A stretch of 64,000 bases of DNA from the NCBI RefSeq assembly GCF_964204645.1, contig NC_134036.1, positions 10,767,859-10,831,858 on the forward strand, written 5' to 3'. The notes under the pieces were generated by a model that worked only from the letters and a program-made list of their open reading frames with translations, did no database searches and had not been told where the DNA came from. Positions 32,783 to 61,434 of this stretch are shown in pieces; position 1 is the first letter of the stretch, and each line of letters begins with the position of its first letter. The stretch comes from Tubulanus polymorphus. Its lineage: Eukaryota > Animalia > Nemertea. Made by a program: the position numbers and the translations under genes.

Positions 32783-32854
32783 AGTAATTGGAATATGTGG
32801 GTTTCATACCAGAGGGCGAGAGGGCGAGACACCACTCATCACCACAAGTAATTT
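32783..32854 (+). repeat. Left TIR
   Basis: Exact reverse complement of 49462-49533. Confidence 0.95.
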
Positions 32855-32867
32855 GTTTTCCTTATAA

Positions 32868-33131
32868 ATGGGAGACAGTGAGTTCCAAACAGAAAAAAGT
32901 GATGTTAATGAAAATCAATATTATTGTCCATATTGTAAAAAATACATCGATAAACCTTACATGGAAAATGTTAGAAATTATATTGATTCACTAGAAATAA
33001 AAGATACAATTGAAATTTCAGAAATATGCCGTAGTAAAATTGTGACACACATAAACAGTGAGAACTGTATCTGGATAAATAGATGCTTGTTATATACAAG
33101 GGGAAGTAATCCCACTCATCACCACAAGTAA
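32868..33131 (+). pseudogene. Internally deleted duplicate of the pPolB N-terminus
   Basis: NQYYCPYCKKYID is fused to KPYMENVRNYIDSLEIKDTIEI; both blocks occur about 100 aa apart in ORF 47334-49418. Confidence 0.85.
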
Positions 33132-33147
33132 TTTGTTTTCCTTATAA

Positions 33148-33474
33148 ATGGGAGATAGAAAAGCATTCTTAGCAACAATAAATAACAGAATAAAACCAGC
33201 AAAAAAACAATTTGAAATAAAAAAGTTAGTTGATGTTACAAAAGAAATTGAACATAAAATATTGAAATTAGAAAAGATAAAAACTAAATATGGAGAGAAA
33301 GTATCAGCTAATTTAAGCTACTGTAATGTTAGTACATCACGAGAATTTAAAGTGTTTTTACCCGATAAATGGGTTTCATTGAGTACTGAGGAATTGAAAG
33401 ATTTAGTAGGATTTAAAATAATCTATCATGGGAAAAATGAAGATGGCCATCTTGATTTAGAAATTATTGATTAA
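33148..33474 (+). CDS. Small conserved Polinton protein, possibly OB-fold ssDNA-binding
   Basis: KKL..KTKYG..VFLPDKW..IYHGK pattern; homologue in the second element at about 62000-62340. Confidence 0.55.
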   Translation: MGDRKAFLATINNRIKPAKKQFEIKKLVDVTKEIEHKILKLEKIKTKYGEKVSANLSYCNVSTSREFKVFLPDKWVSLSTEELKDLVGFKIIYHGKNEDGHLDLEIID

Positions 33475-33668
33475 ATTAAAAAAAAATAAATTAATAAAAA
33501 TAATGAATATCTAGAATCCGAAATGACTTATCTGAACAATTTAATTGCTCCGCATAGATGGTGCCATAAACGGCACCCACACAGTGATAGACAAAAGTAG
33601 TGAGATGGTGCCGTACGGCACCCACACGGTGATATTCAATTATTTTTTTTTGCTTTTTTTCTAAAATA

Positions 33669-34037
33669 TTAATCCTTTTTTTTTATTATCAATTTTGGAA
33701 TTTCAGAAGTATTTTCATTTTTGATAGCAGTTGTTTCAGAATTACTAATATCATGAATTTTATTTGATTTCTTATACCAATTACACCCAATCAAAATGAA
33801 TACAATTACAAATCCAACTGTAAAATATAAATATTTATCAAATATTCTGTTATCAGAAGGAGTAGAAATAACAATATTTTCACCATTTTTATTAACATTT
33901 TTATTACTTATTTTTTCTTTTACAGCTTTTTTATATTCTTGTGATTTAATTCCTAATTGTCGAGACCATTCAATTTGTTTCTGAGTTCTCGGTTTTTTCT
34001 TCACAGTTAATTCCTTCACTTCTTTCACCTCGCTCAT
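33669..34037 (-). CDS. Small basic protein with one transmembrane segment
   Basis: 122-aa ORF, TAAATG start, hydrophobic YLYFTVGFVIVFILIG. Confidence 0.65.
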   Translation of the reverse strand: MSEVKEVKELTVKKKPRTQKQIEWSRQLGIKSQEYKKAVKEKISNKNVNKNGENIVISTPSDNRIFDKYLYFTVGFVIVFILIGCNWYKKSNKIHDISNSETTAIKNENTSEIPKLIIKKKD

Positions 34038-34575
34038 TTATTATAGAAATATTTTTACTTTCAATATTTGAAAATGTTATAACCCCAGTTGATAATAATG
34101 TCATAAATCCACCTAATTGAAATGATAAATATCCAATACATTTATTTAATTCAGTCATAACTAAATAATCATTTTTTAAATCGGAATATAATTTATTTTC
34201 ATTTTCAATTGGTAGTATATAATTACATAATTTACTTTAACCTTTTACTACATTTTCTGATATCGCGTCATTAATTCTAGCTGTTCTCGCGGCTTCATAA
34301 ATTTTAAATAATCTAATAATTTCATCTGATTTCATTGTATCTAATTCATTATAAGTTAAATTTTTACCGACAAAATTTTTACATTTTCCAGATGCTATTA
34401 ATATTTCTAATTGATGTTTACAATAAAGATAATATTCATAATTATTATTTGTTGTAACATTATTTAAAGCACCATCATCTGGAGTTAATTTTGTTTCTGT
34501 TATTCCTAAATCATCTAAAGTTTTTTCAATTGGAACATCACCATTTTTAGATTTTATTTTCTTTTCACCTACCAT
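33970..34575 (-). pseudogene. Polinton-like hypothetical gene interrupted by an in-frame TAA at 34237-34239
   Basis: ORFs 34237-34575 and 33970-34158 share a frame and read through VVKG*SKLCNYILPIENE. Confidence 0.65.
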
Positions 34576-34607
34576 TTATATAACAAAAAAATTAGTTGTG
34601 ATGTTGC

Positions 34608-34845
34608 AACTAGAATTTAACTAGAATTTAACTAGAATTCAACTAGATTAACAAGCTAGTTGAAATATTGTTGTTTTTATTTATTTATTGTTAAATCTAG
34701 TTGATTTTTGTTTCAACTACTAACAACTAGAATTCAACTAGAATTAAAATAGATTAACAAGCTAGTTAAAATATTGTTAAATCTATTTGATTTTTGTTAC
34801 AACTACCAATAACTAGAATTCAATTAGATTAACAAGCTAATTGAA
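34608..34845. repeat. Internal non-coding array of AACTAGA / CTAGTT motifs in both orientations
   Basis: About three larger units of AACTAGAATTCAACTAGATTAACAAGCTAGTT. Confidence 0.8.
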
Positions 34846-34846
34846 T

Positions 34847-35455
34847 TTAAATAAATTCATATTTAAATGGGTGTTGTAATCTAAATAGTAATTTTGATCT
34901 TTTAATATTTTTCAACTCATCCATATATTCATTATGTAAATCATGTGGAATAATATCATTTTCCTCAAGTGCATTTTTCATCGATTTTCTATCTTTATTG
35001 TAGAATAAAACTAGAAATCTAATGTTTTCTCTAAAGTCTTTAACAATTGAATTATATTTCTGATTTAAAACCCAAGTTGTTATCCCAAAATGTCTACCAG
35101 AGAAAGCTAAATAACATAACTCACTTTCTCTAATTTTAGAATCATGTAAATTTGCACAATCATCTATGATAAATAATGTATTTGATCCTTTATAAATATC
35201 AATTGCTATTTTTATACAATTATCTAAATTTTCTTTTACTGTTTTAGGATCTAATATAATAAATTTATTATTTCTAGTAATATTTCTATCATAAGTTTGA
35301 TTAAATTCATATGTTGGACAAAATAATACTATATTATCAAAATAGTTTTTGTAAATAGTTTCTAATAAATTTAATATAAAATAAGTTTTTCCACAATTTG
35401 TTACACCAGAAATTAACATATTATGAGGCTCAAATATAAATAATTCCTTATTCAT
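34847..35455 (-). CDS. Genome-packaging ATPase (A32/FtsK-like)
   Basis: Walker A SGVTNCGKT, Walker B LFIIDD, SGRHFGIT..LNQ. Confidence 0.92.
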   Translation of the reverse strand: MNKELFIFEPHNMLISGVTNCGKTYFILNLLETIYKNYFDNIVLFCPTYEFNQTYDRNITRNNKFIILDPKTVKENLDNCIKIAIDIYKGSNTLFIIDDCANLHDSKIRESELCYLAFSGRHFGITTWVLNQKYNSIVKDFRENIRFLVLFYNKDRKSMKNALEENDIIPHDLHNEYMDELKNIKRSKLLFRLQHPFKYEFI

Positions 35456-36583
35456 TTATATATTTTTAATTTTACTTGATAATATCCATTCATTGAATTT
35501 ATCTGGCCATCCAACCCATTTTACTAAAGAATATTTTTTTCTTTTAATAGTTTTTGTTTTTAATACTTTTTCAATTTTATATTCTTGTTCTAGATTTTCA
35601 GTAGTTAAACTTAATTCTTCTTCGTAAAAGTAACCATCAACTTCTTCACCATCTAAATCTTCTAATTTATAGACATATGGTTTTGTTGTTATTACCTTTT
35701 TTATTTTATATATTTCTCTAGTAAAATTTCGATCGTATCCTTTATCAAATATCTTTTTATACTTAGAAATTCTAACATTTTGACCAACTTTAAATTTAGG
35801 TTCACCAAAATCATCTACAAGAAATGCTCCATATAAATTATTCCAAACAATTTCAGCATTTTCAGGTTTTCTAGCATCAATAGGTTTCATTCCAATAGAA
35901 GAATGATAAGAATTATTATATCCTTCTATCAATTTTGGTAAAACATCAATCCATTTAAAAGTATTATTTGCTGTAAAATATTTCCACATTCTTGTTCTTA
36001 ATGTTCTATTAAATCGTTCAACAACTGCTGCTTTTTTATCTGATTTTGTTGAAAAATATTTAATATTATGATTATCTAAGAGTTCATGAACAAGTGAATT
36101 ATCAAATTCTTTTCCATCATCAAATTGTATTTTTTCTGGTTTTAGTTTATCATCCGAAAGAAATTTTCTTAAAACATTTGATGTTTGTACAGCATCTTTT
36201 CTATAAAGTGGGAAGCTCCATACATAACGACTAAAAATATCAATTATATTCAATAACCACCAATAATCATCATTATCTTTCTTAACATTTTTCATATCAA
36301 TTAAATCTCCTTGCCACTGTTGATCTACATAACTTACCATAGTTTTACGAGTTTTATATTTTCTAACAATTTTTTTATGTGTTGTATATGTTGGTTGTTC
36401 TAACATAAATTCATTTATATCTTTATATTTAACTAAATTTTGTGGGATTATCTTATCTAATTTATCTTGTTTTACTTTACGCCATATATTTTTAGTAGAA
36501 GAATAAGCAACCGAACTCTCAGGGTTGTAATATAAATTTCTTAAATATTGTTCTTTAGTATTAGGAGTTTTTTTACCACTCAT
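35456..36583 (-). CDS. Retroviral-like (rve) integrase with C-terminal chromodomain
   Basis: QWQGDLIDM, IDIFSRY, QFDDGKEF, VVERFNRTL; YKIEKVL...LVKWVGWPDKFNEWI. Confidence 0.96.
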   Translation of the reverse strand: MSGKKTPNTKEQYLRNLYYNPESSVAYSSTKNIWRKVKQDKLDKIIPQNLVKYKDINEFMLEQPTYTTHKKIVRKYKTRKTMVSYVDQQWQGDLIDMKNVKKDNDDYWWLLNIIDIFSRYVWSFPLYRKDAVQTSNVLRKFLSDDKLKPEKIQFDDGKEFDNSLVHELLDNHNIKYFSTKSDKKAAVVERFNRTLRTRMWKYFTANNTFKWIDVLPKLIEGYNNSYHSSIGMKPIDARKPENAEIVWNNLYGAFLVDDFGEPKFKVGQNVRISKYKKIFDKGYDRNFTREIYKIKKVITTKPYVYKLEDLDGEEVDGYFYEEELSLTTENLEQEYKIEKVLKTKTIKRKKYSLVKWVGWPDKFNEWILSSKIKNI

Positions 36584-36613
36584 TTATATATCCTTAATTT
36601 TAACTTTATATTT

Positions 36614-37861
36614 CTAATATTGAATACTATTTAATTGTGAATTTACAATATTTAATTGCGCGTCAGATATAATATAAATCTGCATTTTAAAATTTTTGAT
36701 TCCTTTATTCTTTTTCATGAATAATTGTATTCCATCTTTAGTGTTTTGTAGTTTTTTTCCAGAACCATGTAATGAATTATCTTCAGTTGTTCTAAAATCT
36801 AACCATAATGCATATTTATTACCGGTATAATAATCAATTTGATTAATATTACAATTTTCAAATGATTTTACTTTTTCATTCATAAAATGTTTTCTAATTT
36901 CTGGCCATTGATCAATCATTCTCATTCCTTGACAAAATATTTTATTCGCTATTCCTTCGATAGTTATTTCTACTTTTGTTATTTCAGGATTATAATAATT
37001 ATCAACATTTATTGCACCATTAGAATATGTTGCAATAGTAAAAAATATTAATATACCTTTAATAGATCTTCTTGGGAAGTTAATATTCTCATTAATAATT
37101 TCATCATTTGCATTAATAGTTACAGTTTTAAATTTATCAATATAATCATATAATAATGAAAATCCTTGATTGTATTGAGTTTGAATTGTGCTAGCAATAT
37201 TTTCATTAGTTACTGTGTTATATTCTAAACATATATTCGATAATTTATAACCCATATCTTTAACAACGCTAGATAATACAATTTCATTTACAGGAGCAAA
37301 TGTTATCTCAAATATAATATCTTCTTGAATTGCGTATTTATATAAAGGTGCATTATTATTTATCAATTCAAAGTCTAATGGAATTTTATATTTGCTTCCA
37401 TATATACTTTTAATCAAATTATCTACACCATTATTTACTACTGCGTTATTGGCTTCAGATCTTAATTTATTTTGGTTTTCTGATTGAATACCCTGAAATA
37501 TCATATTATTTCTATTTTCTTTAGTTAACCATAAATCTTTATAATGTGAAAATAAATTATAATCATCTAATGAGAAAACTGTTTCTGGACCAATCTTTAT
37601 TGTTAACTTTTTAATCAAATATCTTCCAACATTATCAACAACATAATTATTATTATTACCGATTACTTTTATATCAGCTGATAAATAAATACTATTTGGA
37701 ACATAAAAAGTATTTTGTGTTAATCGAGGAATCCTCACGTATAAAGTTTCATCGGGATTAATATTTGAAGGGTTATGAGTAATTATATGATGTGATCTTT
37801 CTGCTTTAATAGCATTAGATATTCTATGATTCTTCGAAGGACTTATATAACTCCCACTCAT
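36614..37861 (-). CDS. Major capsid protein (double jelly-roll, adintovirus-type)
   Basis: 415 aa, beta-rich; THNPSNINP, NICLEY, RSIKGIL, YALWLDFRT..D..LHGSG and YIISDAQLNI motifs typical of this capsid family. Confidence 0.85.
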   Translation of the reverse strand: MSGSYISPSKNHRISNAIKAERSHHIITHNPSNINPDETLYVRIPRLTQNTFYVPNSIYLSADIKVIGNNNNYVVDNVGRYLIKKLTIKIGPETVFSLDDYNLFSHYKDLWLTKENRNNMIFQGIQSENQNKLRSEANNAVVNNGVDNLIKSIYGSKYKIPLDFELINNNAPLYKYAIQEDIIFEITFAPVNEIVLSSVVKDMGYKLSNICLEYNTVTNENIASTIQTQYNQGFSLLYDYIDKFKTVTINANDEIINENINFPRRSIKGILIFFTIATYSNGAINVDNYYNPEITKVEITIEGIANKIFCQGMRMIDQWPEIRKHFMNEKVKSFENCNINQIDYYTGNKYALWLDFRTTEDNSLHGSGKKLQNTKDGIQLFMKKNKGIKNFKMQIYIISDAQLNIVNSQLNSIQY

Positions 37862-37905
37862 TTATTTAACAAAAAAATTAATTATTTATTTTTTGATATC
37901 ATGGT

Positions 37906-39348
37906 TTACTTGATATTTTTTGATATCATGTTTACTAAACCAAAAATAATAGCACTTACAACTGTAATTAAAAATAAAATAATATGTTCAGCAGCAAAGT
38001 TAAGAATGTTTCCTGCAGATTTCAATATAAAACCAACAATTGATGCAATAACTCCTGGTAATGCTGCAGCAGATTTCTTTGACAGTTCCCATAAATATTT
38101 TGCTAATTTCATTAAACCATCCTTAACTTTATCTTGTATAGAATTATTGCCTGGAGGTTTATCTGGTTTATTGGGAGTGGGAGTAGGAGTAGATTTCAAA
38201 GCATTTGATATTGCTAAACCAATTGTTGTAAATAACATAGTTACAGCTGTTAGAATTGAAAGAATTGTTATTCCTTCTAATTTAAATAATAACTTCATCC
38301 TGTCTTTTAATGATATTTCAGAATTTGGTTTAATCAACAAATCTTTAAAAATAATATTTAATCTATTAATATTATAATCATTTGATTTTAATAATAATTT
38401 AATTTCTTCTTTCTGTACTTCTAAATTATCTTTTAAATTACTAATTTCTTTTTCTAAAAGTAATTCTTTTTGCCTATATTCTATTTCATCAATTACTTGA
38501 TGATCTAAATCAGACTTTAATTGTTCTATTTCTTTATTTTTATCAGTTAATTCTTTTTCCAAATACATAATTTTTTGATCTCTTATACTTTTATTATGTG
38601 CAATTTTATCAGATGCAAGTCTTATACTAATAATTTCTCTAATTGCTTTATCAGAAAATATATCTAAATCTTCTAATTCTTGATCTGTTGCATCAAATAA
38701 TCCATTCGGTAAAAGTTTTTCAATTGGAACTTTATTTGATCTAAATTTACTATTTTTGGAAGTTATATTCTGTTCAGAAGTTGTTTCTGTTTCTGATTTC
38801 TTTTTGATTATTTCAAATAATTCATTAATTCTTTGTTTAAATACATCTATATTATCATCTATTTCTTTTTGTGTAACATCAGTTATTTCATTACTATTAC
38901 TTATTATTTTAATTCTATCTGGTTTTAATTTTTCTAAAGTTGATTCTAATAATATTTTATTTTTATTATTTTTATAAGTGATATAAATATAATAATCACC
39001 TTTCAAACGATAATAACATTTACCATTATTTAAAAATTTCAATTGATCTGCTAAAAGTCCAACGTCTTCATCATTTATGTTAAAATTAGATTTTTCAATT
39101 AAATCTTCTAATTTAGGTATTTTGTTTAAATTATCTAAATCTTGTTTTACTAAATTTGGGTCTAAATTTTCAGGATTTAATTGTGATTCAGCATTTTTAA
39201 TATAATCAGGCATATTTAAATTATTATTATATTCTGGTTCATTACCATCATTAAAACTTGTTTCATCAAAATCAGGTGGTTGTTCATCAGTTATGTTAGG
39301 TTCATCAAAAGGATCCATTCCAATATCTTCTCCACCTTCTACATCCAT
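37906..39348 (-). CDS. Coiled-coil protein with C-terminal hydrophobic helices (putative membrane-active virion protein)
   Basis: Acidic N-terminus, heptad region, EGITILSILTA and KSAAALPGVIASIVGFILK segments, C-terminal TM. Confidence 0.7.
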   Translation of the reverse strand: MDVEGGEDIGMDPFDEPNITDEQPPDFDETSFNDGNEPEYNNNLNMPDYIKNAESQLNPENLDPNLVKQDLDNLNKIPKLEDLIEKSNFNINDEDVGLLADQLKFLNNGKCYYRLKGDYYIYITYKNNKNKILLESTLEKLKPDRIKIISNSNEITDVTQKEIDDNIDVFKQRINELFEIIKKKSETETTSEQNITSKNSKFRSNKVPIEKLLPNGLFDATDQELEDLDIFSDKAIREIISIRLASDKIAHNKSIRDQKIMYLEKELTDKNKEIEQLKSDLDHQVIDEIEYRQKELLLEKEISNLKDNLEVQKEEIKLLLKSNDYNINRLNIIFKDLLIKPNSEISLKDRMKLLFKLEGITILSILTAVTMLFTTIGLAISNALKSTPTPTPNKPDKPPGNNSIQDKVKDGLMKLAKYLWELSKKSAAALPGVIASIVGFILKSAGNILNFAAEHIILFLITVVSAIIFGLVNMISKNIK

Positions 39349-39364
39349 TTACATAATGAAAAAA

Positions 39365-40702
39365 TTAAAATTTAAAATATAATATTCCTCCTATAACAAT
39401 TCCTATACAAGTTATAGCTAATTTAGTATTTTCATGGGATTTATTATCATCATTTAGTTTAATTATATCATGTTGAATTTTATCGGTTTTAATATCACCG
39501 TGTGGATGCCGTACGGCACCATTTTCTATAGTATTGTAATCTTTTATTTTGGAATCATTATTTAATTTAATATTATTAGTTTTAGTTTCTGTTGATTGAA
39601 TATGTTTTTTATTTTTTTCACCTTCCATTAATTTTGGAGCAGTAATAATCTTTTTATTTATATCATTTAATCCAATTGAATTATTTATTGTTGCAGTTTT
39701 AATTAGATTATTATAACCAATTATATTTCCCATCTTTAATACTAAATCATTAGAAATAATTAATAGATTAGGTCCTATACAATAATTTAATCTAATATGT
39801 GATTTATCTAAATAATTTTGATATCTAACAATGTTTTCTGGAATCGATCTATTTTTATCATTATGAATGGAATCTTCAAATAATACTTTGAATTGTTTCT
39901 GCGCATCAAATGAAGTACTATTATTTCCAACTATTGGTGATCTTGTTTCAACTTGTGCACCTAAAATACATATCAAATAAGTTCTAATTGATTGATTTAT
40001 TCTTTGTATACCGGGTTTTGTAAATCCTTCACTATAAGATTCAATAAAATAAACCCAACCATTATTATTATGAATTTTATAATTATGATAAGCTCCAATT
40101 CTATGCATATAATCAATTCTTTTTATTTCATACTGTTCACCAACACCTTGCAATTTACCATGCGCTCTAAAATCGAAATTAATATTTATATTAAATTCAT
40201 TACATATTTTATAAAACTTGGATATATTAATATTATTATCCAATTCTTTAAAATATTTTGATCCAGGTAAAGGGCATTCTAATTCATTTAATATAATTCT
40301 AATTTGAAATTATACATGAAATCTAAATATTGTATGAATGAATTTTAAATCAGAATATTTCAAATTTTTATCTAAGTTATTCAAGTGATCATGCCAACTT
40401 ACACCACAACCAGCTGTTGCACAATGAACAGCAAAATTTAATTGATTCTGCCAATATTTCATATTAGATTTTACTTTATATATATTATATTCATCTCGAG
40501 TAAAAGTAACTTCATATGTATTAAATATATTTTCCATTTTAGAAATAAAATAGTTTGTTTCAGTAACATAAATTTCTAAATTAATCAATGAAGGTAAAAC
40601 TAAATTTTTATATATTATCATGTTACTAAAATCTATTGCTGGAGTATTATATTTATAATATTCATGTGATTTATTATATTGGAAAACTTTTGGAAACCCC
40701 AT
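39365..40702 (-). pseudogene. Conserved adintovirus-type hypothetical gene with an in-frame TAA at 40310-40312
   Basis: ORFs 40310-40702 and 39365-40243 are in frame: WQNQLNFAVHCATAGCGVS...FRFHV*FQIRIILNELECPLP. Confidence 0.75.
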
Positions 40703-40830
40703 TTATATAACTAAAAAATTAATAATTTATTAATTCTTTTAATAATTTATCTTGTTCTTCAACTGTTATATGGCCATTTAAACTTATTATATAATCTAGT
40801 GTGTTCTTTAATTTATTAATTTCTTTTATA

Positions 40831-41154
40831 TTAGATTTTATTTTTTTCTTTATTACTTTTTATATTTAATTTTGAACTTATACCAGTTAAAACACTTGAA
40901 CTTAATCCTAATACACCAATTGATATAGCTAAATGTGTTAATGGACTGAATATTGCTAGAAATGTTATTACAGAACTAATTGTAACCGAACCACTGATAA
41001 TAAGATAATATATAATTTTACTTTTTAAATATTTTTTCTTTTTTATCTTTAAGTCACTTTCAAATTCTAATATTTGTTTTTCTAAATATATTTTTAATTT
41101 AGTTTTATTTATATCATGAGGAATAATATCAATACTATCAACTTTATCTTCCAT
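40831..41154 (-). CDS. Two-TM small membrane protein, probably truncated by a frameshift in an A-run
   Basis: Two hydrophobic segments; an alternative frame continues KEINKLKNTLDYIISLNG. Confidence 0.6.
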   Translation of the reverse strand: MEDKVDSIDIIPHDINKTKLKIYLEKQILEFESDLKIKKKKYLKSKIIYYLIISGSVTISSVITFLAIFSPLTHLAISIGVLGLSSSVLTGISSKLNIKSNKEKNKI

Positions 41155-41174
41155 TTATTTAGCAAAAAAAATTA

Positions 41175-41597
41175 CTAATTAGTAAACTTATAAGCAACAA
41201 ATATAACAATAACTGTTCCACCTAAAATCCAAATTATTTCATATTTCTGTTGTTCTTTACTTGGGGTATAATAATCTGATAATTTAGGTTTGTATAGATG
41301 TAATTTTTCTTTATTTGTTACTGCGTTATATAAACTCATTGCATCATCAACTGATTGAAAATCTCTATGTGAAATCTTCTGATCATATAATTCTTTATTG
41401 ATGTAATCCATATAGTTTTGTCTCTTTTCTCTATATTCTTCTGCAGCTTTATTGTATTTCTCTAACGCTAAGTTATGTCTTCTTTGTTCTCCTAATGAAC
41501 TATTTTTATCAATATGTTTAAATAAATATCCACCACCAGTAAATGCTAAAGCGTTAACAATTGCTGATCCTATAATAGTTATAATTGCAGAAGCCAT
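41175..41597 (-). CDS. Conserved small virion-type protein
   Basis: IGSAIVNALAFTGGGYLF, EQRRHNLALE and KLSDYYTPS motifs; C-terminal TM. Confidence 0.75.
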   Translation of the reverse strand: MASAIITIIGSAIVNALAFTGGGYLFKHIDKNSSLGEQRRHNLALEKYNKAAEEYREKRQNYMDYINKELYDQKISHRDFQSVDDAMSLYNAVTNKEKLHLYKPKLSDYYTPSKEQQKYEIIWILGGTVIVIFVAYKFTN

Positions 41598-41622
41598 TTA
41601 TTTAGCAAAAAAAATTATGCAT

Positions 41623-41838
41623 TTATATGGGAGGAATATATTTTTGTTTTTCCAAATAATCAATAGTTAAATTAGATAAAGTAACTGCTAATGTTAATTT
41701 TAAAATATCATTTATATCAAATCTATCAACATTAACACTTTTGAATACTTTTTTTAATACCATTGAATAACCAACCGTTCCAACTGATAGTAATGCGCCA
41801 TTATATAATCCAGTTATTATCCACTTATTATCACTCAT
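41623..41838 (-). CDS. Small hydrophobic protein
   Basis: 71 aa, TAAATG start, tightly packed with its neighbours. Confidence 0.7.
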   Translation of the reverse strand: MSDNKWIITGLYNGALLSVGTVGYSMVLKKVFKSVNVDRFDINDILKLTLAVTLSNLTIDYLEKQKYIPPI

Positions 41839-41841
41839 TTA

Positions 41842-42195
41842 TTAATTAAAAAAATTACTATCATTAAAATATTTAGTTAACTTAGTGACTATTAATTCAA
41901 CATTTATTTTATTACTAGTTTCATTTGTATATATTTCAATTATTATTTTTTTAATATCATCGATGATAAAATCTTCATCTAATTCATAAAATCTTAAAGA
42001 TTCTCTAATTAAATTAGTAATCTTTTCTACATTTAAAGTTTCTTTATCTATTGTTGTTTCATACTCAAATGTTGTTTCATTAGAAAATGCAATATTTTTG
42101 ATATGTGTAATTACATCATTAATGTTAAATTTCATTTCTTTCTCACGTTTAAAATCAAACCCAAAACATATACTCGGTCCAACAGTTATATTCAT
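41842..42195 (-). CDS. Hypothetical protein
   Basis: 117 aa, TAAATG start, in the gene array. Confidence 0.65.
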   Translation of the reverse strand: MNITVGPSICFGFDFKREKEMKFNINDVITHIKNIAFSNETTFEYETTIDKETLNVEKITNLIRESLRFYELDEDFIIDDIKKIIIEIYTNETSNKINVELIVTKLTKYFNDSNFFN

Positions 42196-42211
42196 TTATA
42201 TAGGTGAAAAA

Positions 42212-42964
42212 TTACTCTTTACATCTTACAACTAATTCATAAATTATAGGAAAGTTATTCAAATCAATTAAGTATCCATTATGATTTCTAATTTCTAATC
42301 TAAAATTATTAAATTGAGGAATACAAGGTTTGAAATCACATTCAGCTAAATTATAATTTATTTGCGTTCCAAATTGTTTAACATTCTTCATTGGTAAAAT
42401 GTTTAGTAAACCAGAATAACAAGTTATATCTTTAGTTGCTTCGAATGTTTTTGTAGGATCGATTAAATTGCAATAAATATAAAAGTGTGTAAAAGGTATT
42501 ATATTTGGTGTAGTATCAACATTTGAATAATATTTATCTGGTGTAATTCCTAATAGTTTAGCTATAGGTTTTTTAACTGAAAATTGATATTTTTCATTAT
42601 GAGCTAACCTTATCTTCATTTTATTAGAATTATCACTTTTCAAAAATCTAATGTTAAATTCAGCATCACTACCTAATTTGATCCGAGCTTTTTTATTAAT
42701 TTCCTGCGCTAATGTATCTAAATTATATAATCCTGGTTTTAAAAATAGATAATTCCATTTATCCTTACTCTTGTTTGAAAAAAATAAATGTTCAAGACTT
42801 TTAGCTGTTATATTATAAAATGAGTTACAAAAACTTATATTAACTAATTTTAAATCTACGCAATTCTTAAATTCTCTATCTAATTGTACTAATAAATTAT
42901 GTGATTTATAATTTGTAAGTTTTCTAGAATCAATAAATATTCTGTATTCTTTCAATTCTACCAT
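42212..42964 (-). CDS. Minor capsid (penton-like) protein
   Basis: IFIDSR, LKPGLYNLDTL, FYIYCNLID, FRLEIRNHNGYLIDLNNFPIIYEL. Confidence 0.8.
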   Translation of the reverse strand: MVELKEYRIFIDSRKLTNYKSHNLLVQLDREFKNCVDLKLVNISFCNSFYNITAKSLEHLFFSNKSKDKWNYLFLKPGLYNLDTLAQEINKKARIKLGSDAEFNIRFLKSDNSNKMKIRLAHNEKYQFSVKKPIAKLLGITPDKYYSNVDTTPNIIPFTHFYIYCNLIDPTKTFEATKDITCYSGLLNILPMKNVKQFGTQINYNLAECDFKPCIPQFNNFRLEIRNHNGYLIDLNNFPIIYELVVRCKE

Positions 42965-43032
42965 TATTTATAACATAAAAAAATTACCGCTCATCACTAA
43001 AAATTAATTTTAATAAAATTTTTCCTTAATAA

Positions 43033-44346
43033 ATGGAAGTGAAGATAGCATGCGAAATTTGTGGTGAACTTCTAAGAAAAAGTAATATGGCTCGACATAT
43101 GAAAAAACATGATGAAAATTATAAACCCCCTAAAATAAACTGTCCAAATTGTAATAAAACATTCTCTAGAAATTATTTCAAAAAACATTTAGAGAAGTGT
43201 AAAAATAATAACTTAATAGTTAATGTTGACAGTAACGAAAGTAATAATAATTCTGTTGAAGTTGAACCTGAAATTATTTGGAAAAGACCTTTCTTATTCT
43301 ATGATAAGGATAATATAAAAGATCATTTCTGTGAGCCTTGTCGAATAAAATATAACCCTGAAAATATAGAAGATTGGGAGAATCATCAATTTCGTAAAGT
43401 ACATATAGATAAAATTTCTAATAAATTTGAAACTGAATTCAATGCAAGAAAAAATAATTTATTAGAAAAAATAAAATATGAGAAAACGTTACCAGATAAT
43501 GAAGAAACAGTTGAAAAGTTAGAAAAACAATATAATGAATTAACAAGAAAAACATATTATTGTAAATATTGTAAATTGATTATTACAACAAGTAATTCAA
43601 ATCTACATGATAGAACAATAAAACATAAAGAAAACGTAAGAAAATACCAAGAGCTTAATGAAGATCTATTACTAATAGATTATAAACAAAAATGCCCACA
43701 ATGTATTTATGCGACCTTAAGGCAAGAAGGTACTGTGTTATTTTGTGTTGATTGTGGATGGCAAAGGAATTTATGGGGTGAAGAAAAAACTAGAAATTTT
43801 CTTATAGAACCAAAATTAAATTATCTTGATGAAATTTTTAAAATATTTTCTATAGAAGATCATACACCAGAATATATGCAATGGCTTGAAAAAATGAAAA
43901 TAATAGAAAATAAAAATGGTGAAATAACTAAAAAAGATATTATAAAAACAATTATTCCACCAACATTTAACAAAAAACAAAAGAAAATGTATTTATATTT
44001 ATTATTTAACGATTATTATGAAAAACCTAAATTAACAGAAGAAGATATGGAAAATATAAAAAAAATATTTAAACAAATATTAATGTATCATTTGGAAAAT
44101 AGAATAACAGATTCAATAAATTATGAATTCTTTTTAAATAAGATTGTAAATTATTTAAACCTAGATATTATAATTCCATTTGATGAATTAACAAACAAAA
44201 AGAAACAAAGAGAGCGAGATGAAATGTGGAACAAGATAGAACTTTATTTAAATGAGAAAAATGGAATGGAAGAAGAACCTGAACAATTAAATGAAAATGA
44301 AGAAGCCAATAGTGATTTCGAGTTTGATGATATAGATCCATTTTAA
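43033..44346 (+). CDS. Zinc-finger protein with C-terminal VLTF3 (poxvirus A2)-like late transcription factor domain
   Basis: Four N-terminal C2H2/matrin-like fingers, a CPQC-x12-CVDCG ribbon, then SINYEFFLNKI...KKQRERDEMWNKI. Confidence 0.7.
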   Translation: MEVKIACEICGELLRKSNMARHMKKHDENYKPPKINCPNCNKTFSRNYFKKHLEKCKNNNLIVNVDSNESNNNSVEVEPEIIWKRPFLFYDKDNIKDHFCEPCRIKYNPENIEDWENHQFRKVHIDKISNKFETEFNARKNNLLEKIKYEKTLPDNEETVEKLEKQYNELTRKTYYCKYCKLIITTSNSNLHDRTIKHKENVRKYQELNEDLLLIDYKQKCPQCIYATLRQEGTVLFCVDCGWQRNLWGEEKTRNFLIEPKLNYLDEIFKIFSIEDHTPEYMQWLEKMKIIENKNGEITKKDIIKTIIPPTFNKKQKKMYLYLLFNDYYEKPKLTEEDMENIKKIFKQILMYHLENRITDSINYEFFLNKIVNYLNLDIIIPFDELTNKKKQRERDEMWNKIELYLNEKNGMEEEPEQLNENEEANSDFEFDDIDPF

Positions 44347-47300
44347 TAACCATAAGGTAATGTTTTTATACCATCATCTGAAATATGCCTTTTATCATCA
44401 AATGGATTTAAACTAGTTTTTTCAACTTCATTAATGTACATCTCATGATCTTCTGATCTTAAACAATTCATCTTGTGTTTCATTACAATTGATTTATATA
44501 AACACTTTATATAATCTTGAAATTCTATATGTTTATCAACCACATGTTTTGTTATTCCTTTTAACTTTTTAGCTTCATGATCTTTTGTTCTGTAACTATA
44601 CATTTTACTTCCTATCCCAACAAATTCAATCATTTCATCACCTCCTAATTCATCTTTAAACTTACCAGGAATCTTTTTATTATCATTACTAAACAATTCA
44701 TGATCTTTGGGGTAATTGCTAAAATCAAAATAATGTTTTAATGTTTTTAAGTCTTTTGTTATATCATTTGTCTTGATTTTTAGTATGTAGGCGTCAGTAT
44801 TGACCGCTATTAATGGAAATCCACAGTTAAATGTACCATCTTCAGTTGATAAATCATAAACATAATCTGTTGGGTTATATATTTCAAATAAATCCTTATC
44901 TTCTTCTGTTAACTCATTTTCTACATGGCTTAAATTAAAGCAATTTGGTTTAGATTTAATCAATCCAATATTCATATTGAAGCCTAATGAATTACATAAT
45001 ATATTTAATCCTGATATAGCAACTTTTCCTTTTTGAGCTAAAGATATTGTTTTGCGGTTTTTGAAACTTTTTGAACCATCTGCAGCATAGAACCGAATGA
45101 AGAACCATTTTCTTAAATTATTTTTTGCATTTAATACATAATCTGGAACTATCTTTTCTTTAGTTGAAGTATTACTTTTCACTATTGCATGAGTGTAGAA
45201 TTCGTTATTATATATATATTTATAGCAAAATCTTTAGGATTATTCACATGTATTCTATAACATTGCGATGATTTCATAACATCTATGATTTTAAATGTTT
45301 TATGTGAATAAACTTCTTCACAGAATTTCTTAATTCTTTCTAATAATTTTAAGTCTTGATTGCATAAATACCAACAATATTTAGTTCCACTAACATAATT
45401 ATACACACCTGCTGAACCATCACCCATGAAAAATCCTTTGATAAAATATTCTTTTTCTTCTAATGTTTCGGGTTCTATATTATAAATATTATTAATTATT
45501 TCATCAAATGACATATGATTCATTCTTGGGAAAAATCTTTTATGTAATAATTCATCTCCAATTTTTATATCAGTTGGTTTTATTTCATTACCATTTTGTT
45601 TAATCAAACTATGGTCTTCAGTAACATCTACAAATCCTAATTTAGTTCTAACTCTATAGATTTTCTTATTTGTTTTATGTCTAATAATATTCTTTAATTT
45701 TTTCCATCCATTTCTTGTCCAAACATCCATTAAACCATTTATTTGTATAAGTTCTTTTTCACCATATGAAATATAAGATTTATTTTGATTAGGAATTATT
45801 TGTGAAATTCTTCTTACCAATATTTTATTATTACATTTTAATAATATTGGGGTGTCAGCCGTTACAGAATCAAAATATAATATTTCTATATGTTTTTCCC
45901 CAAAAAGTGGCTGCAAAACATTGTAATAAAAATTATACATCAATAATTTTTATATTTGCAAAACAGTTGAACCTATAAATATAGGTTTATTAAATTTTAA
46001 TGATGTTCTTTTTAATTTAACTGCTGTTAAATAATCTTCAAATCTTTTATTTCCTAAATGTCTAGGACTTGATTGTAAATGTCTTAATCTTTCAGAATTA
46101 TTTACTAATTCAATATCATTTCTATTTCTAATATTTTCACATGTTTTACCATAAAAACTATTATTCATTAATTTGAAGAAATCTTTTTCAAAATCTGTTT
46201 TTGATATGGTTCTCTGTTGAGTATTGAAATCTATATATTTTTCTAACCACTTCGATTGATTAAATTCAATATATCTATGTACTTTCTTTAATTTCATTCC
46301 TTGTTTTAGATAAAATTTTAACATTCTATAATGAACAATATAATTGTATTTATTATTTTGAGTAAGTATTAATTTTTCTGTAAAAACATGATCTTTCGGT
46401 TTTATTTTCTTCTGGTATTCACTTAAATAACTATCATCTACAGTTAAATGTTCTGGGCAATAAGGTAAGTTTCTTGTTTTAAACTTTATATTTTCAGGAT
46501 ATTCTAAATCAACTACAAAGAAATAACCAATTGGTGCTTCATCTTTTAAACTAATAATTGCGCTTTCCCAATCAGTTTTATCACCATTTTCAACTTCTGT
46601 TAATATAAAATTTTTATATGGTTGAGGTTGCATCATTGCCCAACCATATAAATTATTGGCGTCAATATATAATAATTTATATTCATCATTTGCTTTAAAA
46701 TACCTATCTCCCATAACACCACTAATTCCACCTCTAATTGATTTTTCAAATAATAAAACCATATCTGCTTCTTTTAATAAATCTAATTCTACATTTGTAT
46801 ATTTTAAACCACATTGCCAGGTTAAACCAGGACTAGAATAACAATAACAAGGATCAACATTAAAATGATTCAAATTAACTTCTCTAAATTTTTCAAATAT
46901 GTCAGCTAATATCATAACATCTGATTTTAAATATAAATCAACTAATTCGCCATGATTTTTCATCTTAAAATAGTTCCAAATATTTAATGTTCTATTAAAC
47001 ACTTCGTCTTTCACATACTCCTCTTTTAATTTATCATAAAATTGATCTTTTAATAATTCTGTTACATTAAAATCATTATGTGTTTTATAAAATGAATAAG
47101 GAATTGCGCCTTTATATCTCAATAATTTAAAATCTTGTTCATTTGGATAATAATATCGAGTTATAACAAAATCATTATCAACTAAACTTTTTGATAAATT
47201 ATCTAATGAACTTGCTAGAAATCTATAAGAATCTAAAAATCTAATGCAACCAAATTGAAATGAAATATAATTTTCAGATGTTTTAGCTAATAGTTTAAAA

Positions 47301-49418
47301 TCATATTTTCTTACATTTACACCATTCATAGCATTATATTCTTCTATTTTCTTGATTAATTGCACCCAATTTTCCCGATAATTGTTTTATAAATAGATGG
47401 GTATCATAGCCTGATAAATTATGAAATAATATTGGTACGAAATTAACTTTCTTAGCTTGTAAATTGCAATCTTCATGAGCAGCTCCACGATATTTTGAAT
47501 TCAAATGATCATGATCTCTAACTCTTTTATCAAATGAATAAAAACGTTTTTCACAATAACAACAATGAGTTGCATAATTAAAATCAATTTCATCTTCTTT
47601 TGTCATAACTATTCTTTTATTTTTGTTCAATAATTTTGCAAAATCACTTTTTAATTCAATAATTTTATCACAAAAATCATTAACTACATTTTCACCTCTA
47701 AAAGAAATATATTGACTTTCATATAATTCGGGATAATTTGATTTTATGTAAATTCCATAAGCAGCAGCTCTTAGATGAACTTTTTTAATTGTATTTATAA
47801 TTGGTGGGTCTTGTATTGTGTCTTCATTTAATTCATTTCCTTTATCCATTGATTTTAATAATTGCTTTTTGTTATATATTTCTTTTCTATCTTGATCAGT
47901 TAATTCTTTATTCAACGATTCAAAATCCCCATAAATTACAAATGGAACAATATTTTTAAATTTATGATTAGTAAATTTCAATTTATAATCTTTTTCTGTT
48001 GGCATTATTAATTTACAAAAATCTTTATTATCACATAATTCTTTATGTTTTAATAATGTATTCTCGGTCATAAATTTAGATAAACATTTTCTACATAGAT
48101 AAATTTTACGATGATGATCACTTTCTGTTCTAAAGAATAAATCAATTTGTTTTAACCACACATAATGTTCATTTTCATCTTTTTTATAATATAACAAATC
48201 TATAGCATTTTCATCATCATAATATTCTGTTAAATATAAAGCTTCCAATGTATAATCTTTAATATTTTCACCTTTTGTCTTTGGTAATTGCATTAATTCG
48301 AATACATTTATTTTTAAATTATTAATTTTTTCTATTTTAGGAATCATTTTTATAGTTACTGGATATTGATCAATTTTATATAATGTTTCATATTTCCGGT
48401 AATTTGTTATTCTAAAACTATGCGTCATATCTTCTGTTTGTTGTAAACAACTAATAATTGACCATAGAAAACATTTATTATCTTCATTTTGAACATTTAT
48501 TACTGCTTTTGTTGTAAATGGTAATTTAATATAAGATGATGCTTTAATATCCTTTTCTGTTGTAAAGTTTGAATCATTTTTAAACATTTTATTACTTTTT
48601 GATGTTTTATTCCTTTTTGTATTATAAACATTTAAATCTAAATATATTATTTCATTCAATGTTAAGCCAGAACCCTCAAAATATCTTTCTTCAATATGAC
48701 GTTTAAATTCATTAAATATTTTTTCTAACTTCTCTTTTATTTGTGTTTTTGAAATTATTTCTTCAGAGTGTGTTTGAATATTATAATTCATTTTTTCTTC
48801 TGACTTTATAAAACTTACTTTCCCAGAGATACTAATTTTTGGATATTCAACATCTGTTATCAAATCTAGTATTTTTTCTATTATTTCATTAAATTTACTA
48901 TAATCTTCTATTGTTGTACCTTTAAAAAATCTAAATATAATAGCTGCAGGACCAATTTTACTATGTAATGTTTCTAAGATTTCAATTGTATCTTTTATTT
49001 CTAGTGAATCAATATAATTTCTAACATTTTCCATGTAAGGTTTATTTGAAATGGATTTAGTTTTTGAAGTTGATTCTTTTACTTTTTGAGGTTTATTATC
49101 AAAATAATCTTTTCCTAAAACATTATTACTCAAATTTTGGTGGTGTTTTTGTGATTCGAGATGTCTATTATAATTCCTTTTTACTATAAATTCATTACAA
49201 ACTTCACATTTTATTTCATCCACATTCATATTTTCTAATCGTTCTTTTCTTTCATTGGAATTTTCTGGAGTTTCAAAATCTATTACATTTTTTATATGAT
49301 TTGCAGTTTTTTCATGTCGTGTTTTATGAGATGTATCGATGTATTTTTTACAATATTGACAATAATATTGATTTTTATTGACATTATTGTTTTCTAGTTG
49401 GTGTTCATTCTCCCCCAT
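44343..49418 (-). pseudogene. polB: Protein-primed family B DNA polymerase (OTU-like and Endo VII-like domains), intein-containing, with three lesions
   Basis: DNKCFLWSII..HYVW; VIYGDFES; VRDHDH..YRGAAHEDCNL; FHNLSGYDTH; LYIDANNLYGWAM; KLMNNSFYGK; YFD|TD; KLKGI; PFDDKR. Lesions: 22-bp insertion at about 47357-47384, TAA at 45950-45952, 2-nt slip at about 45210. Confidence 0.95.
44799..45868 (-). mobile_element. Intein with LAGLIDADG homing endonuclease in PolB motif C (about 356 aa after removing a 2-nt slip)
   Basis: Block A SVTADTPILL, block B VDVTEDHSL, KGFFMGDGS and RFYAADGS, block F YVYDLSTEDGTF, terminal Asn followed by Thr. Removal restores ILYFD-TDAYIL. Confidence 0.93.
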
Positions 49419-49461
49419 TTATTAGGAAAAAAATTACTTGTGGTGATGAGTGTTAGGAAAA

Positions 49462-49533
49462 AAATTACTTGTGGTGATGAGTGGTGTCTCGCCCTCTCGC
49501 CCTCTGGTATGAAACCCACATATTCCAATTACT
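49462..49533 (-). repeat. Right TIR
   Basis: Exact reverse complement of 32783-32854. Confidence 0.95.
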
Positions 49534-52500
49534 TAAGAGTGTATTAAAAATGTTCAACCCAACAGGTATTGGATGTTTCAGTAAAATTTCCGGACCAACG
49601 AAAGTTATGAATGAGGAGATACTAAATTCCTAATAAGAAGAATAATTCGATGCTGTTCGATTTTTCAATCAGTTGTATTGATTTGTTTCTTTTTTATTGC
49701 TTATGTTGTCACAATGGAGATTTCAGCAGTTTAGGATATTTTCATCGGACGTAAATTGCCATCTGTTCAGCTTTCTGCCAATTCTTGATTACTGAAATCG
49801 ATGCAACGGTTATAGAATCTTCATACAATTTGCAAATATTTTCAGACATAGACAGGCTTTTTATATGCATTGGATAAACTGAATTTATATAAGTTGTGAA
49901 ATGCTTACATGACGCTTCGAAATTTGGCGCGTAGTAGATATTTGGCCATCCACAATGAATCTACTTCACACCCTCCGTAGTTACGATTAATGAAAAATCG
50001 TCTATTCTCAGTTGTTGAAATAACACTGAAATGCATGAATTTATAATAGGATGTCTTACATAAATACAGAGCCTTTGCGAAAGCAACTGATATATGATAC
50101 ACAAGAAATTGAAAACAAAATATTTCAGACAAAAAGAAACATGTTTACTGTCGTGTAGTGAAAACATATTATTTGAAAATCGGTTTTACAAGCAGATACA
50201 CATACTTACTATCCTTCCATTGAAAAAATGTTAGATTCTGATTCTTTTGATAAATCGTTCCAACTACTAATCATCAATCGTTCCTTATTGAACCAATTAG
50301 TTATTGAAGAACCCGCTCCATTAAATCTGGCTTAGGCAACGGTTTTTCCAGCCTGGTAGAGCTCTACTTGTACCTTGATAGACATAATGTAAATTGTAAC
50401 TGTCATTACTATGAACCTATATTATGATGGTTGGTTTTCACGATAGTTTTATATCTTTTAATGACAAATGTTGCTATAAATGACAATAATTTTGAAAACG
50501 ACGCCACGTCGAACTATCAACACCACGTGATTAAAACACTGACCTCTTTAACATTCATGCTGCCCCATGCATCCACATGAGGACTCTTCCAAACACAGTT
50601 ACATTTTATCGTCGGTTCGAGTCTACTTGGCGGGCATTGGTCATTGTATGGTTTTGTCCACGCTTCATAAACACCTTTATTTGTCCCTTCACTGGCAACA
50701 AACACCAGTCTCCAAGGGGTATCGCCGTACGTAGTCTCGCTAATTTTTACAAGCGGTTTTACATTAACATGTATACAATATATTCCGTATCCGGGATTTC
50801 AATAAATAAACACTTACAGCAGTAATCGTAGACTAACTTACCGCATGATGACCCTAAAATATGAAAAAGGAGTTATCGAAATCGGACAAAAAAAATTATA
50901 ATGCAACATGTTGGGGTTTCTGAACTTCGCGGAATATCCGGATTCTACGGAATTCCCGGATTTTTGTCGGAATCACCGGAATTTATCTAATATTCCCGGA
51001 TTCTTAGTAAAACCCAGAAAAGATCTCGGATGGCGAGCGGACAATTCAATTCAATATTCTATTGATGCAAATTTGGCAGAAAATGTATACAGCGGCAATA
51101 AACAATTTTGCCTCTCACGCAGCTCGTCCAGTCGACCGATTTCCTTCAGTCATTTTAATTTCATCGTTATTGAGGTATGTATAGAATTGGACATCTAAAT
51201 TTACAGAAAATCTTCATTACTGGCGTTGGCGTTTAAATGTCAACTATTATTAGTGCTTAACGTCGATATGTCATGAAACTGTATGCACTCTATGTATGTC
51301 GGTCGTACGACGTAGAAGCTAGTACTACTCTTCTAGGGCCGGTAGGCCTAAGCTTACTTACAAGTTATATCAGGCATTCCTCCAAGGCCAGCTTCCTGAA
51401 CTTTTTAGCTAGCGGTACATTTTATTATTTTTTACTCATTTGAACTAGACCTTCATTCATTTTGCAGGATGCAGGAGAGGCTAGGCCTATGTCATCCAAC
51501 CAGTCTGAGTCAAATTGAATGCGATATATCATGGCCTGATTATTCAACTAATATGTTTTATTAATTCATTCCAGTTAATCACAGACCAACATGTTGCGCC
51601 TTCCAAATTTAAACGCCACAAGCTGTTACACGAACAGCATTTTACAATGCTTTCACAACTTGTTCAGTTTAAGAAGAGTGTTTGAATTCTTGTCCTCCTC
51701 TCAAGGAACAGGTACCATAAGGTAGCGTTGACGCGTTGGACGGCGGAACTTATCACTAGCAATTTTCGCGATTCATGTTTCGCGTAATGTTCGAGAATTA
51801 TGGAACTCTCTTTAACAAAGAACGTTGACAAAGTAGTTCTTCGTTTATTCGAAATCCCAATTCTTCATAGTGTAATTGCATCGGTTGCGTTAGCTTTTTC
51901 CTATGATTGCCTTTGGATTGAACCAGTCGAAATAGGGCCATCCCGTTTGCCAATATCATTGGTCTCGGGTCACGGATATTTTTATTGTGATGGTTAGCCG
52001 AAATCAATAAACGAATCGGGTCCGCTACTGCGAGAGATGATGAATTACAAACCGTAGAACCTGCCGCTCTACGATCATCAATGCGGCGTGTTTTACAAGG
52101 ATTTGATCTCGGTTCATCTCTACACTCGTCGTTAAGTTTATGTTTACTCACAATATATGTACCATTAGAGCTATTCTCGGAGAGTTTATAACCTACGCGA
52201 TGTCTATACATTTCCACTTATTTCGAATATGAACTGAATTTTTATCGGACCTTCCGATTATATCGTACACCGTGCACTAGGGTGGAAGTGACCTGACAAC
52301 AAGCGTACACGACGAACCAAACAGGGCGGACAGTGTTTTACGAGCGAACAAGGTTTCAAAAATCAAACCCAGCGGACAGTGGTGTGATAACGGTATTATT
52401 GATTTATGTTATTGATTTCAAACAGCAGTTCGGTCCATAAATAGAACTGCTGCTGCAAAAGATAACTCAAACTTTGTGACATAAATTAATGTTAAAATGT

Positions 52501-60420: not shown

Positions 60421-61434
60421 GATTCACGAGAATTAACTCAGTTCGGTATGCTCCAGACCTGTTCACTACACGCATTATAGCAATGTAACTGTTAAACTGC
60501 ATCTGAGCTGAATTCATGATTCGATTAAGTGTCAGCGGTATGTGGACTGATTGTATCAATAGACTGAAGCTACGTGCAAGCCATGACGTATATTCATTAA
60601 CGCAAGCAATTTATTGTTCGCATCAAATGAAAAACAAATTTTCAGAAATCTGACTCAATTTACCCAGATTCAGAAATTAAAAAATTTATCACCCCATTGG
60701 CACTCAAGCCGCCCCTATCCGCCCAGACTTACACTACTCAAACCACCCGAATCCGCCCGGCAATTTTTTCGTATGCTGCACGAAAACGGTTATAGTAGGA
60801 TTCGAGCCCAATAGCTTATGATAAACTGCACACCTAAATCCTTGAAATACCGTACAGAAATCAACATCCTCCTATTTCAATTTCTCGAGTATTTCAAGTT
60901 TGAACATGACACATCTGAGCGCTCACTTCGAATCCAAGTAAGTTTGGATTAATTTCGGGGGCGAAAAGGACATGATTTTGGTGGCCCGCCTCATCAAATC
61001 TTACATCATATGAAAACGTTGACTATTTACTACAAATTAACACTAACTTGTTATGCATGGAAATCGAGATCGGAATAGAACTCTGCTCCCCCGAGACTGC
61101 GAACCCCTTTTGTAGAAAGAAGCGGCATTCTTTAAAATCAGATTCTCCCACTCAACTTTTGGCAAGAAGCAGCGACCTAGCTGCCATGACAGTTTTTGGT
61201 AAAGTATATAGCCCTAATGATCTCAAATTAATTTGAAAACTGATTCGCATAACTTAACTGTGGAAATCATGAATTGGAATTGTATTTTACCTATGGAATA
61301 CCGATAGATCTATGCATTTTAATCCAAGTCTTTACAGCACTTCGATGACCGCGTTGTGCTTGTCACGTGATTTTGGTAACAGCGGAAGTTTCGTTCCTTT
61401 ACCTCGTTAGTAGTGATAGGGGATTGCTATACAC

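Follow-up and report, generated by a model that had tools for sequence, protein, structure and literature searches.

In family B DNA polymerases (PolBs), both aspartates of motif C are catalytic. To our knowledge, the viral inteins known from eukaryotes come from large DNA viruses. The closest described system to the locus reported here is the PolB intein of Mimivirus, which according to the accessible part of its description (PMC549080) occupies site III in motif C, is about 350 aa long and combines Ser1, a Thr-x-x-His motif, a terminal Asn and Thr at +1 with a LAGLIDADG endonuclease, and all of these features are shared by the insert described below. The Polintons and adintoviruses, as portrayed in the accessible parts of PMC8502044 and PMC8097293, likewise share with our locus a protein-primed PolB (pPolB), an rve integrase, an A32 ATPase, inverted ends and a 6-bp duplication. 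Inteins of the eukaryotic nucleus are described from Anaeramoeba and fungi, for which arrival via large DNA viruses is proposed in the available portions of PMC10710043 and PMC5784728. For animals, the supplement of PMC5784728, as far as available, counts 0 metazoan inteins, and inteins are stated to be absent from metazoan genomes in the accessible text of PMC8529194. Nuclease domains inside Polinton pPolBs are nevertheless on record as HNH/VSR inserts (PMC10748475, PMC11071308, both in part), which are suggested to come from intein invasions (PMC11071308, accessible text).

The window, which is the whole 64,000-nucleotide stretch of DNA that was analysed, very probably carries a canonical intein in motif C of a Polinton pPolB, predicted to be self-splicing and likely to have spread by cutting intein-free alleles. 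The pPolB gene lies on the minus strand at 44343..49418 (PF03175, E 1e-16; tblastn with P0001; open reading frames) and is probably of Beta type, the Alpha and Beta class names being inferred from the accessible part of PMC8502044. The intein lies on the same strand at 44799..45868 and consists of a Hint domain and a double-LAGLIDADG endonuclease, with Ser1, TEDH in block B, an Asp in block F and a terminal Asn. The polymerase reads HIEILYFD up to the N-side junction, ILYFD/SVTADTP at 45869/45868, and resumes at the C-side junction, GFPLIAVN/TDAY at 44799/44798; the C-extein (44343..44798, minus strand; 58% identical to P0001) begins with Thr+1 and the second Asp of motif C. An earlier note had described a motif C split with Ser1, terminal Asn and Thr+1, and this is borne out, as both junctions can be read and intein-free relatives align across them. 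The boundaries are fixed by the closest three pPolBs (70-72% identity), in which this place is uninterrupted and reads YFDTDS. Relative to the empty P0138-P0140 and to the P0124/P0127 pair, the insertion is precise and in frame, while the window copy is internally frame-broken: its insert is 1070 nt long, which is not divisible by 3, and tblastn with P0001 places the break in the intein frame between 45203 and 45245. Since the insert parts D from TD of the active site, splicing would be obligatory.

The motifs VTEDHSL, GFFMGDGS, FYAADGS and YVYDLSTEDG are found in the window intein. Its nucleophile, Ser1 at 45868, is likewise Ser in 140 of 140 members of the intein family, and the His of the block B Thr-x-x-His (TEDH) and the Asp of block F (VYDL) stand in columns that are invariant over 70 rows. 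The intein ends N/T, with a terminal Asn and Thr at +1. The penultimate residue is Val, not His; the 140 family members mostly end in KN (KN 104, HN 26, SN 8, VN 2), so that a His at this position is not typical of the family. Of 27 family-invariant columns (70 rows), 24 are retained, the three missing ones all lying in the second endonuclease half, and both endonuclease Asp residues are kept, one per LAGLIDADG motif. The earlier note made its claim depend on a Hint or LAGLIDADG profile match, a test which was passed by the N part of the window copy for the intein N-terminal profile TIGR01445 (33.1 bits, over the cut-off of 24.5) and by unbroken relatives for PF14890 (P0152, P0003) and PF14528 (P0001, P0152, P0003, P0005); the broken halves of the window copy themselves fall under the Pfam cut-off (PF14890, Intein_splicing, E 1.2e-5; LAGLIDADG_3, E 0.04). 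The Hint and endonuclease fold was modelled on the nearest unbroken relative, the P0001 intein (61% identical), rather than on the window copy. The predicted fold (pLDDT 93, pTM 0.92) has as its top structural matches the endonuclease-bearing inteins TliVMA, PI-PkoII, PhoVMA, PI-PfuI and PI-SceI. All rows compared at PolB site III show the D/TD site, and the intein profile matches NEQ068 weakly (E 0.006). On its sequence, and on the predicted fold of its relative, the window insert is thus confirmed as a Ser/Asn (class 1) intein with a double-LAGLIDADG endonuclease in the motif C of a pPolB.

Other identities for the insert were considered. A spliceosomal intron is rejected, as the insert is coding, allelic and without GT-AG bounds, and a free-standing nuclease insert is also rejected. 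Animal Hedgehog/Hint domains share the Hint fold with the window intein. We know, however, of no Hedgehog-type Hint with an internal endonuclease, paired splice junctions or allelic empty sites, and a Hint of this type is rejected for the window insert, which has all three.

The element around the polymerase is a whole Polinton/Maverick of 16,751 bp at 32783..49533, with a GC content of 23.6%, whereas most of the bins on either side lie at about 30-45%. It is bounded by terminal inverted repeats, the left one at 32783..32858 (plus strand, starting AGTAATT) and the right one at 49458..49533 (minus strand; 76 nt, 99% match to the left end), and these ends resemble the (AGT)2 type in the accessible part of PMC8097293. 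Outside them stand two exact 6-bp copies of the target-site duplication TAAGAG, at 32777..32782 and 49534..49539 (both given on the plus strand). On the minus strand are found an rve integrase with a chromodomain-like C-terminal part (35456..36583; PF00665, E 2.5e-10), an A32-type packaging ATPase (34847..35455; PF04665, E 1.3e-13) and a weak candidate for the major capsid protein (36614..37861; Capsid_N, E 0.026, under the cut-off), for which a PDB sequence search gave no match; no maturation protease was detected in the Polinton by the Pfam scan. A zinc-finger ORF at 43033..44346 on the plus strand (zf-U1, E 7e-6) is convergent with the pPolB gene. A short ORF at 32868-33131 duplicates the N-terminus of the polymerase with an internal deletion and lengthens the inverted repeat at the left end, and short tandem repeats at 34608-34835 lie in the non-coding gap between the ATPase and the left gene block.

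About 10 kb to the right of the Polinton lies an intronless class-A GPCR gene (59473..60423, minus strand; PF00001, E 1.4e-18), whose top PDB matches are peptide receptors, and the host is therefore an animal. The pPolB, the rve integrase, the inverted ends, the TAAGAG pair and this GPCR flank together uphold the view of the earlier note that a protein-primed Polinton polymerase is present in an animal genome. Its wider claim of an intein in an animal nuclear genome holds in that the chromosome is an animal one, for which the prior metazoan count was 0 in the available part of PMC5784728, and does not extend to a host gene, the carrier being an endogenous virus-like element. Elsewhere in the window, the first part of a second Polinton polymerase gene lies at about 62500-64000, has 71% DNA identity to the first gene over 1.5 kb and is truncated by the window edge before motif C; an 1173-aa ORF at 6851-10372 has no Pfam match and possibly belongs to another DNA transposon, and an ORF at 275-952 has two PC4 domains (E 2e-16).

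The same intein is found at the same site in at least 18 other pPolB clusters (P0001-P0005, P0008, P0011, P0013, P0015, P0152, P0155, P0223, P0257, P0258, P0263, P0267, P0268 and P0271), which are protein records, the animal flanks being those of the window copy; many of the 18 are fragments, and about 10 come from one lineage. P0263 comes from a contig of 2.5 kb that is filed under a bacterial symbiont, and is probably eukaryotic contamination of that bin. When the N half of the intein was used as query, 207 of 1148 candidates passed, and among the best 120 of these 207 pPolBs come first (P0001 at 65%, others at 49-53%), followed by RNA-primed PolBs at up to 45%. The extein as query let 3850 of 7992 scored sequences pass, the best 120 of which comprise 4 with the intein, 94 empty and 22 not callable. 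From the intein profile search the best 120 of 2500 were taken, and a search at the 50%-cluster level (best 150 of 3034) gave no further row classed as pPolB. In viral contigs the intein half of the window found one locus, a further search kept 80 of 516 and P0001 as query gave 0 of 57 candidates; 80 of 292 were kept from metagenome contigs, and 0 of 351 candidates were confirmed in prokaryote genomes. Among 147 intein junctions in the 161 viral and metagenome loci, 138 are nearer to RNA-primed PolB, 9 are unclassed and none is nearer to pPolB.

The 94 empty motif C sites (P0138-P0256) read YMD/CDS in 32 cases, YMD/TDS in 24, YID/TDA in 6 and GFD/TDS in 4, with others making up the rest; sites that have Cys instead of Thr within this catalytic motif may represent escape variants. 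Seven phage-type polymerases (P0014, P0016, P0022, P0326, P0331, P0338 and P0343) carry the same motif-C intein family, their inteins forming two separate clades that are intermixed with giant-virus-type ones, and the four that were scanned match phrog_262. Close relatives of the intein also stand at non-allelic sites (P0006, P0007, P0082, P0089, P0093 and P0096), of which two are in topoisomerase II and one is a further site in PolB.

A total of 197 motif-C inteins were extracted, and the 140 of them that are 320-380 aa long were placed in a FastTree phylogeny, in which 10 pPolB inteins form one side of a branch with a support of 100; in a mixture-model tree of 40 rows, 12 pPolB inteins stand together (100/100). 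These results support a single putative entry of the intein into the pPolBs. With inteins of other sites as the outgroup, the pPolB clade nests among the RNA-primed motif-C inteins, and its sister group (support 89) combines giant-virus-type with T4-like phage polymerases. The AU test does not reject a tree in which 20 of the 22 RNA-primed rows stand together and the pPolB clade lies outside them (p 0.52). The common C-terminal GFPL motif suggested a single sister group, but its support was only 89, and nesting was not required by the AU test. The earlier note assigned the insert to the site and family of the Mimivirus-type PolB intein (PMC549080, accessible part), with which the D/TD site and the trees agree. 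It also proposed a transfer between an RNA-primed giant-virus PolB and a pPolB, of which the relatedness stands on the best tree, while the direction and the donor do not follow from it (AU p 0.52).

Accordingly, the donor has to be weighed against another possibility, that it was a phage-type or cellular family-B polymerase or that the intein flowed outwards from pPolBs. The T4-like phage polymerases P0014 and P0022 (phrog_262) in the sister group, the presence of the same intein family in a green-algal Pol delta (P0071) and the AU result for pPolB inteins outside the RNA-primed ones all speak for this possibility, which we nonetheless regard as unlikely. Most of the relatives found are giant-virus-type PolBs, and since related inteins occupy further sites there (topoisomerase II and the second PolB site), the family is more diverse in the giant-virus-type setting; contact of a Polinton with eukaryotic viruses would also be easier than with phages. 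We propose instead a single, ancient entry of the intein into the pPolBs, out of the pool of motif-C inteins that RNA-primed family-B polymerases carry, the donor most likely being a giant virus in the same cell as the Polinton. The DNA flanking the insertion was compared with 93 distinct viral sites and is identical at a mean of 12-13.6 of 24 nt and at 16 in the best case (without a shuffle baseline); with such low identity to giant-virus sites, a present-day exchange looks unlikely and the entry looks old.

Among Beta-type pPolBs the intein tree largely mirrors the extein tree by eye, and intein and extein identities run in parallel (65/59, 53/48, 54/46 and 50/49%). This parallelism points to long residence, and vertical descent with many losses explains much of it. 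The exception is P0005, which is of Alpha type to judge from its strong PF03175 score and a VSR-like motif in its sequence. Its intein is 49.5% identical to that of the window, whereas the exteins barely align (23 aa; 32% over 116 aa). The P0005 intein groups with the window intein (96/90), and a tree that keeps it out of the Beta-type clade is rejected by a narrow margin in the AU test (p 0.048). The comparison of intein and extein phylogenies proposed by the earlier note thus bears on horizontal movement through the cross-class placement of P0005, while the Beta-type trees largely agree. The extein tree has 41 rows (14 with the intein and 27 empty, 23 uncalled rows being excluded), and the intein state is scattered over it with 12 changes, 10 of them forced by starred branches, against a shuffled mean of 11.8; the empty rows were thinned at 78% identity, which favours scatter. 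In 12 of the 14 intein-bearing rows the nearest matched relative is empty rather than intein-bearing. The data are consistent with a single, old entry and later spread from one Polinton to another, and not with a recent jump into the window copy.

Sister copies with and without the intein, for which the earlier note suggested looking, are found among the pPolB records. P0124, which has the intein, and P0127, which lacks it, share 99.5% of residues on one side of the site and 98.3% on the other, and no local divergence was found at the site in this pair. In the P0152 cluster, which has 136 members, 7 of the 15 listed are unbroken intein-bearing proteins of 1537-1539 aa, located on contigs that range in length from 95 kb to 1 Mb; the empty sisters are 1121-1193 aa long. 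Compared with eight empty sisters, 9 to 12 of the 40 residues nearest to the site differ in this family; one pair has 9 of 40 differences near the site vs 9 of 400 elsewhere (p 5e-6) and a second has 11 of 40 vs 7 of 400 (p 2e-8), such plus/empty pairs not being independent of each other. Three different empty variants occur in the family. Differences centred on the site are as expected if co-conversion, or the survival of uncuttable (escape) alleles, had left them. Six other pairs give a site-centred hint in P0003/P0211 and P0258/P0216 only, with no clear peak for P0257, P0001 and P0263. Near-identical plus/empty sisters, site-centred divergence and an Alpha-class intein may all be read as signs of homing.

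These signs weigh on a further explanation, in which the intein is real and splices but no longer homes, having been acquired once in the Beta type and passed on by vertical descent with many precise losses. The agreement by eye of the Beta-type trees, the way intein identity follows extein identity and the three invariant columns missing in the window copy are what it would predict. It would, however, require at least 10 precise losses without re-invasion, which is unlikely, and it is at odds with the site-centred divergence in the P0152 family, with the intein of the Alpha-type P0005 and with the retention of both endonuclease motifs across inteins that are only about 45-65% identical. Hence we consider it improbable. 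On the preferred reading, a working polymerase would arise only through splicing, excision of the intein bringing both catalytic aspartates of motif C together again. The endonuclease would act on Polinton copies with an empty site, whether sisters or newcomers, and repair of the cut would install the intein there. After its entry the intein would have gone through cycles of homing and loss among Beta-type pPolBs and crossed at least once into the Alpha type, and the window copy would be a decayed member in which the polymerase cannot be read through and the second endonuclease half has drifted.

The window copy of the pPolB is broken near 47334-47386, by a stop at 45950-45952 and inside the intein. 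Four of ten runs under the species label contain the stretch, all from a single study. In X5, a raw read run from another sample and study of the same species, the length differs in 83 of 87 reads at the intein break and in 234 of 288 at the break upstream of it, while all 180 reads over the stop have another base there. Because its three polymerase breaks are mostly absent from the reads of other copies, the window copy is decayed. The X5 depth is about 30 in the right flank, 231 and 225 in the inner intein bins, 231 in the adjacent N-extein bin and 246-362 in extein bins farther away; it is lower over the C part of the intein (179 and 125), the region where the window copy diverges more. These depths give about eight close Polinton copies, most of them intein-bearing. 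No joint skipping the intein was seen in X5 among the 15 of 64 joints listed. From the right Polinton end, 335 X5 reads exit into unlike flanks (agreement 0.38), and many insertion sites thus exist. The join of the element to animal DNA, on which the earlier note made its claim depend, is supported by TAAGAG on both sides and by the coverage of element and right flank in X5. Contamination or a misassembly that would place the Polinton outside the animal chromosome, to which the GC contrast (24% in the element, about 35% in the flanks) and the lack of a read across the exact junction seen in the window might point, is extremely improbable given the exact 6-bp duplication around matching inverted ends and the independent same-species run that covers the element (about 230 deep) and the right flank (about 30) with those 335 exiting reads.

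The starts of the Polinton genes (32783-49533) bear on the setting in which the intein was gained. Among the 21 ATG-started ORFs of at least 65 aa, 15 begin with TAA/ATG (binomial p 2e-12), in most cases preceded at a distance of 8-15 nt by a T-run core. As background, TAAATG accompanies 54 of 655 ATGs in the element (8%) and 41 of the 1704 ATGs of the flanking DNA. The six ORFs without it comprise three inner polymerase fragments, one antisense ORF, one likely fragment and one with TAAAT 3 nt upstream. TAAATG is the late start element of poxviruses (PMC4542343, accessible part), and Polinton-like viruses are described as known companions of entomopoxviruses in the accessible part of PMC11296320. 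The TAAATG starts would fit a cytoplasmic helper virus, which need not be the intein donor, and an AT-rich translation context could be part of the signal. The earlier note had concluded that the two polymerases resided together in one replication compartment. The tree does not imply this, as it requires no more than a single encounter of two DNAs within one cell; the TAAATG starts would lend separate, indirect support to a shared compartment.

Based on these observations, we tentatively put forward a broader proposal, to which we give not quite an even chance: animal Polintons may host their own actively homing, giant-virus-derived intein lineage, gained while they were satellites of cytoplasmic viruses (as TAAATG suggests), integrated into chromosomes and spread among copies and both pPolB classes, where it would drive escape variants of the motif, and germ lines would already carry splicing inteins. 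If this were true, animal germ lines would carry an endonuclease aimed at a motif that is common to host polymerases. The locus also shows how a complete intein, together with its endonuclease, can reach animal chromosomes. The intein, shared by Polintons and large DNA viruses, is a lasting record of their former contact, and as such is relevant to the question of whether the Polintons of animals are viruses that depend on a helper. Families with multiple plus and empty copies make homing and target escape measurable within one genome, and they make it testable why the polymerases of animal hosts stayed intein-free.

Among the openly accessible papers that were searched, none describes an intein in a pPolB or an intein located in an animal chromosome; the scope includes term searches in the accessible supplements of PMC8502044, PMC10748475, PMC10710043 and PMC5784728, and comparison extended to the accessible parts of PMC12220804, PMC3671162, PMC13768754 and bioRxiv 10.64898/2026.10.13.758929. 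Relative to the Mimivirus PolB intein, the host protein here is a protein-primed PolB of a Polinton in an animal chromosome, and the pPolB inteins make up a clade of their own; giant-virus-type relatives are 36-45% identical, the Mimivirus sequence itself not being among the aligned rows. For the polymerases of the Polintons in PMC8502044 and PMC8097293, the accessible text and supplements mention no intein, whereas the window Polinton has one. The Anaeramoeba and fungal inteins lie in microbial host genes, in contrast to the window intein, whose carrier is a virus-like element endogenous to an animal. Unlike the HNH/VSR inserts, which have neither a Hint domain nor LAGLIDADG in the accessible parts of PMC10748475 and PMC11071308, the insert reported here is a full intein, placed in the catalytic motif and with plus and minus alleles. 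The intein family as such is known; what is new is the class of protein that hosts it, the protein-primed polymerases, and its genomic setting.
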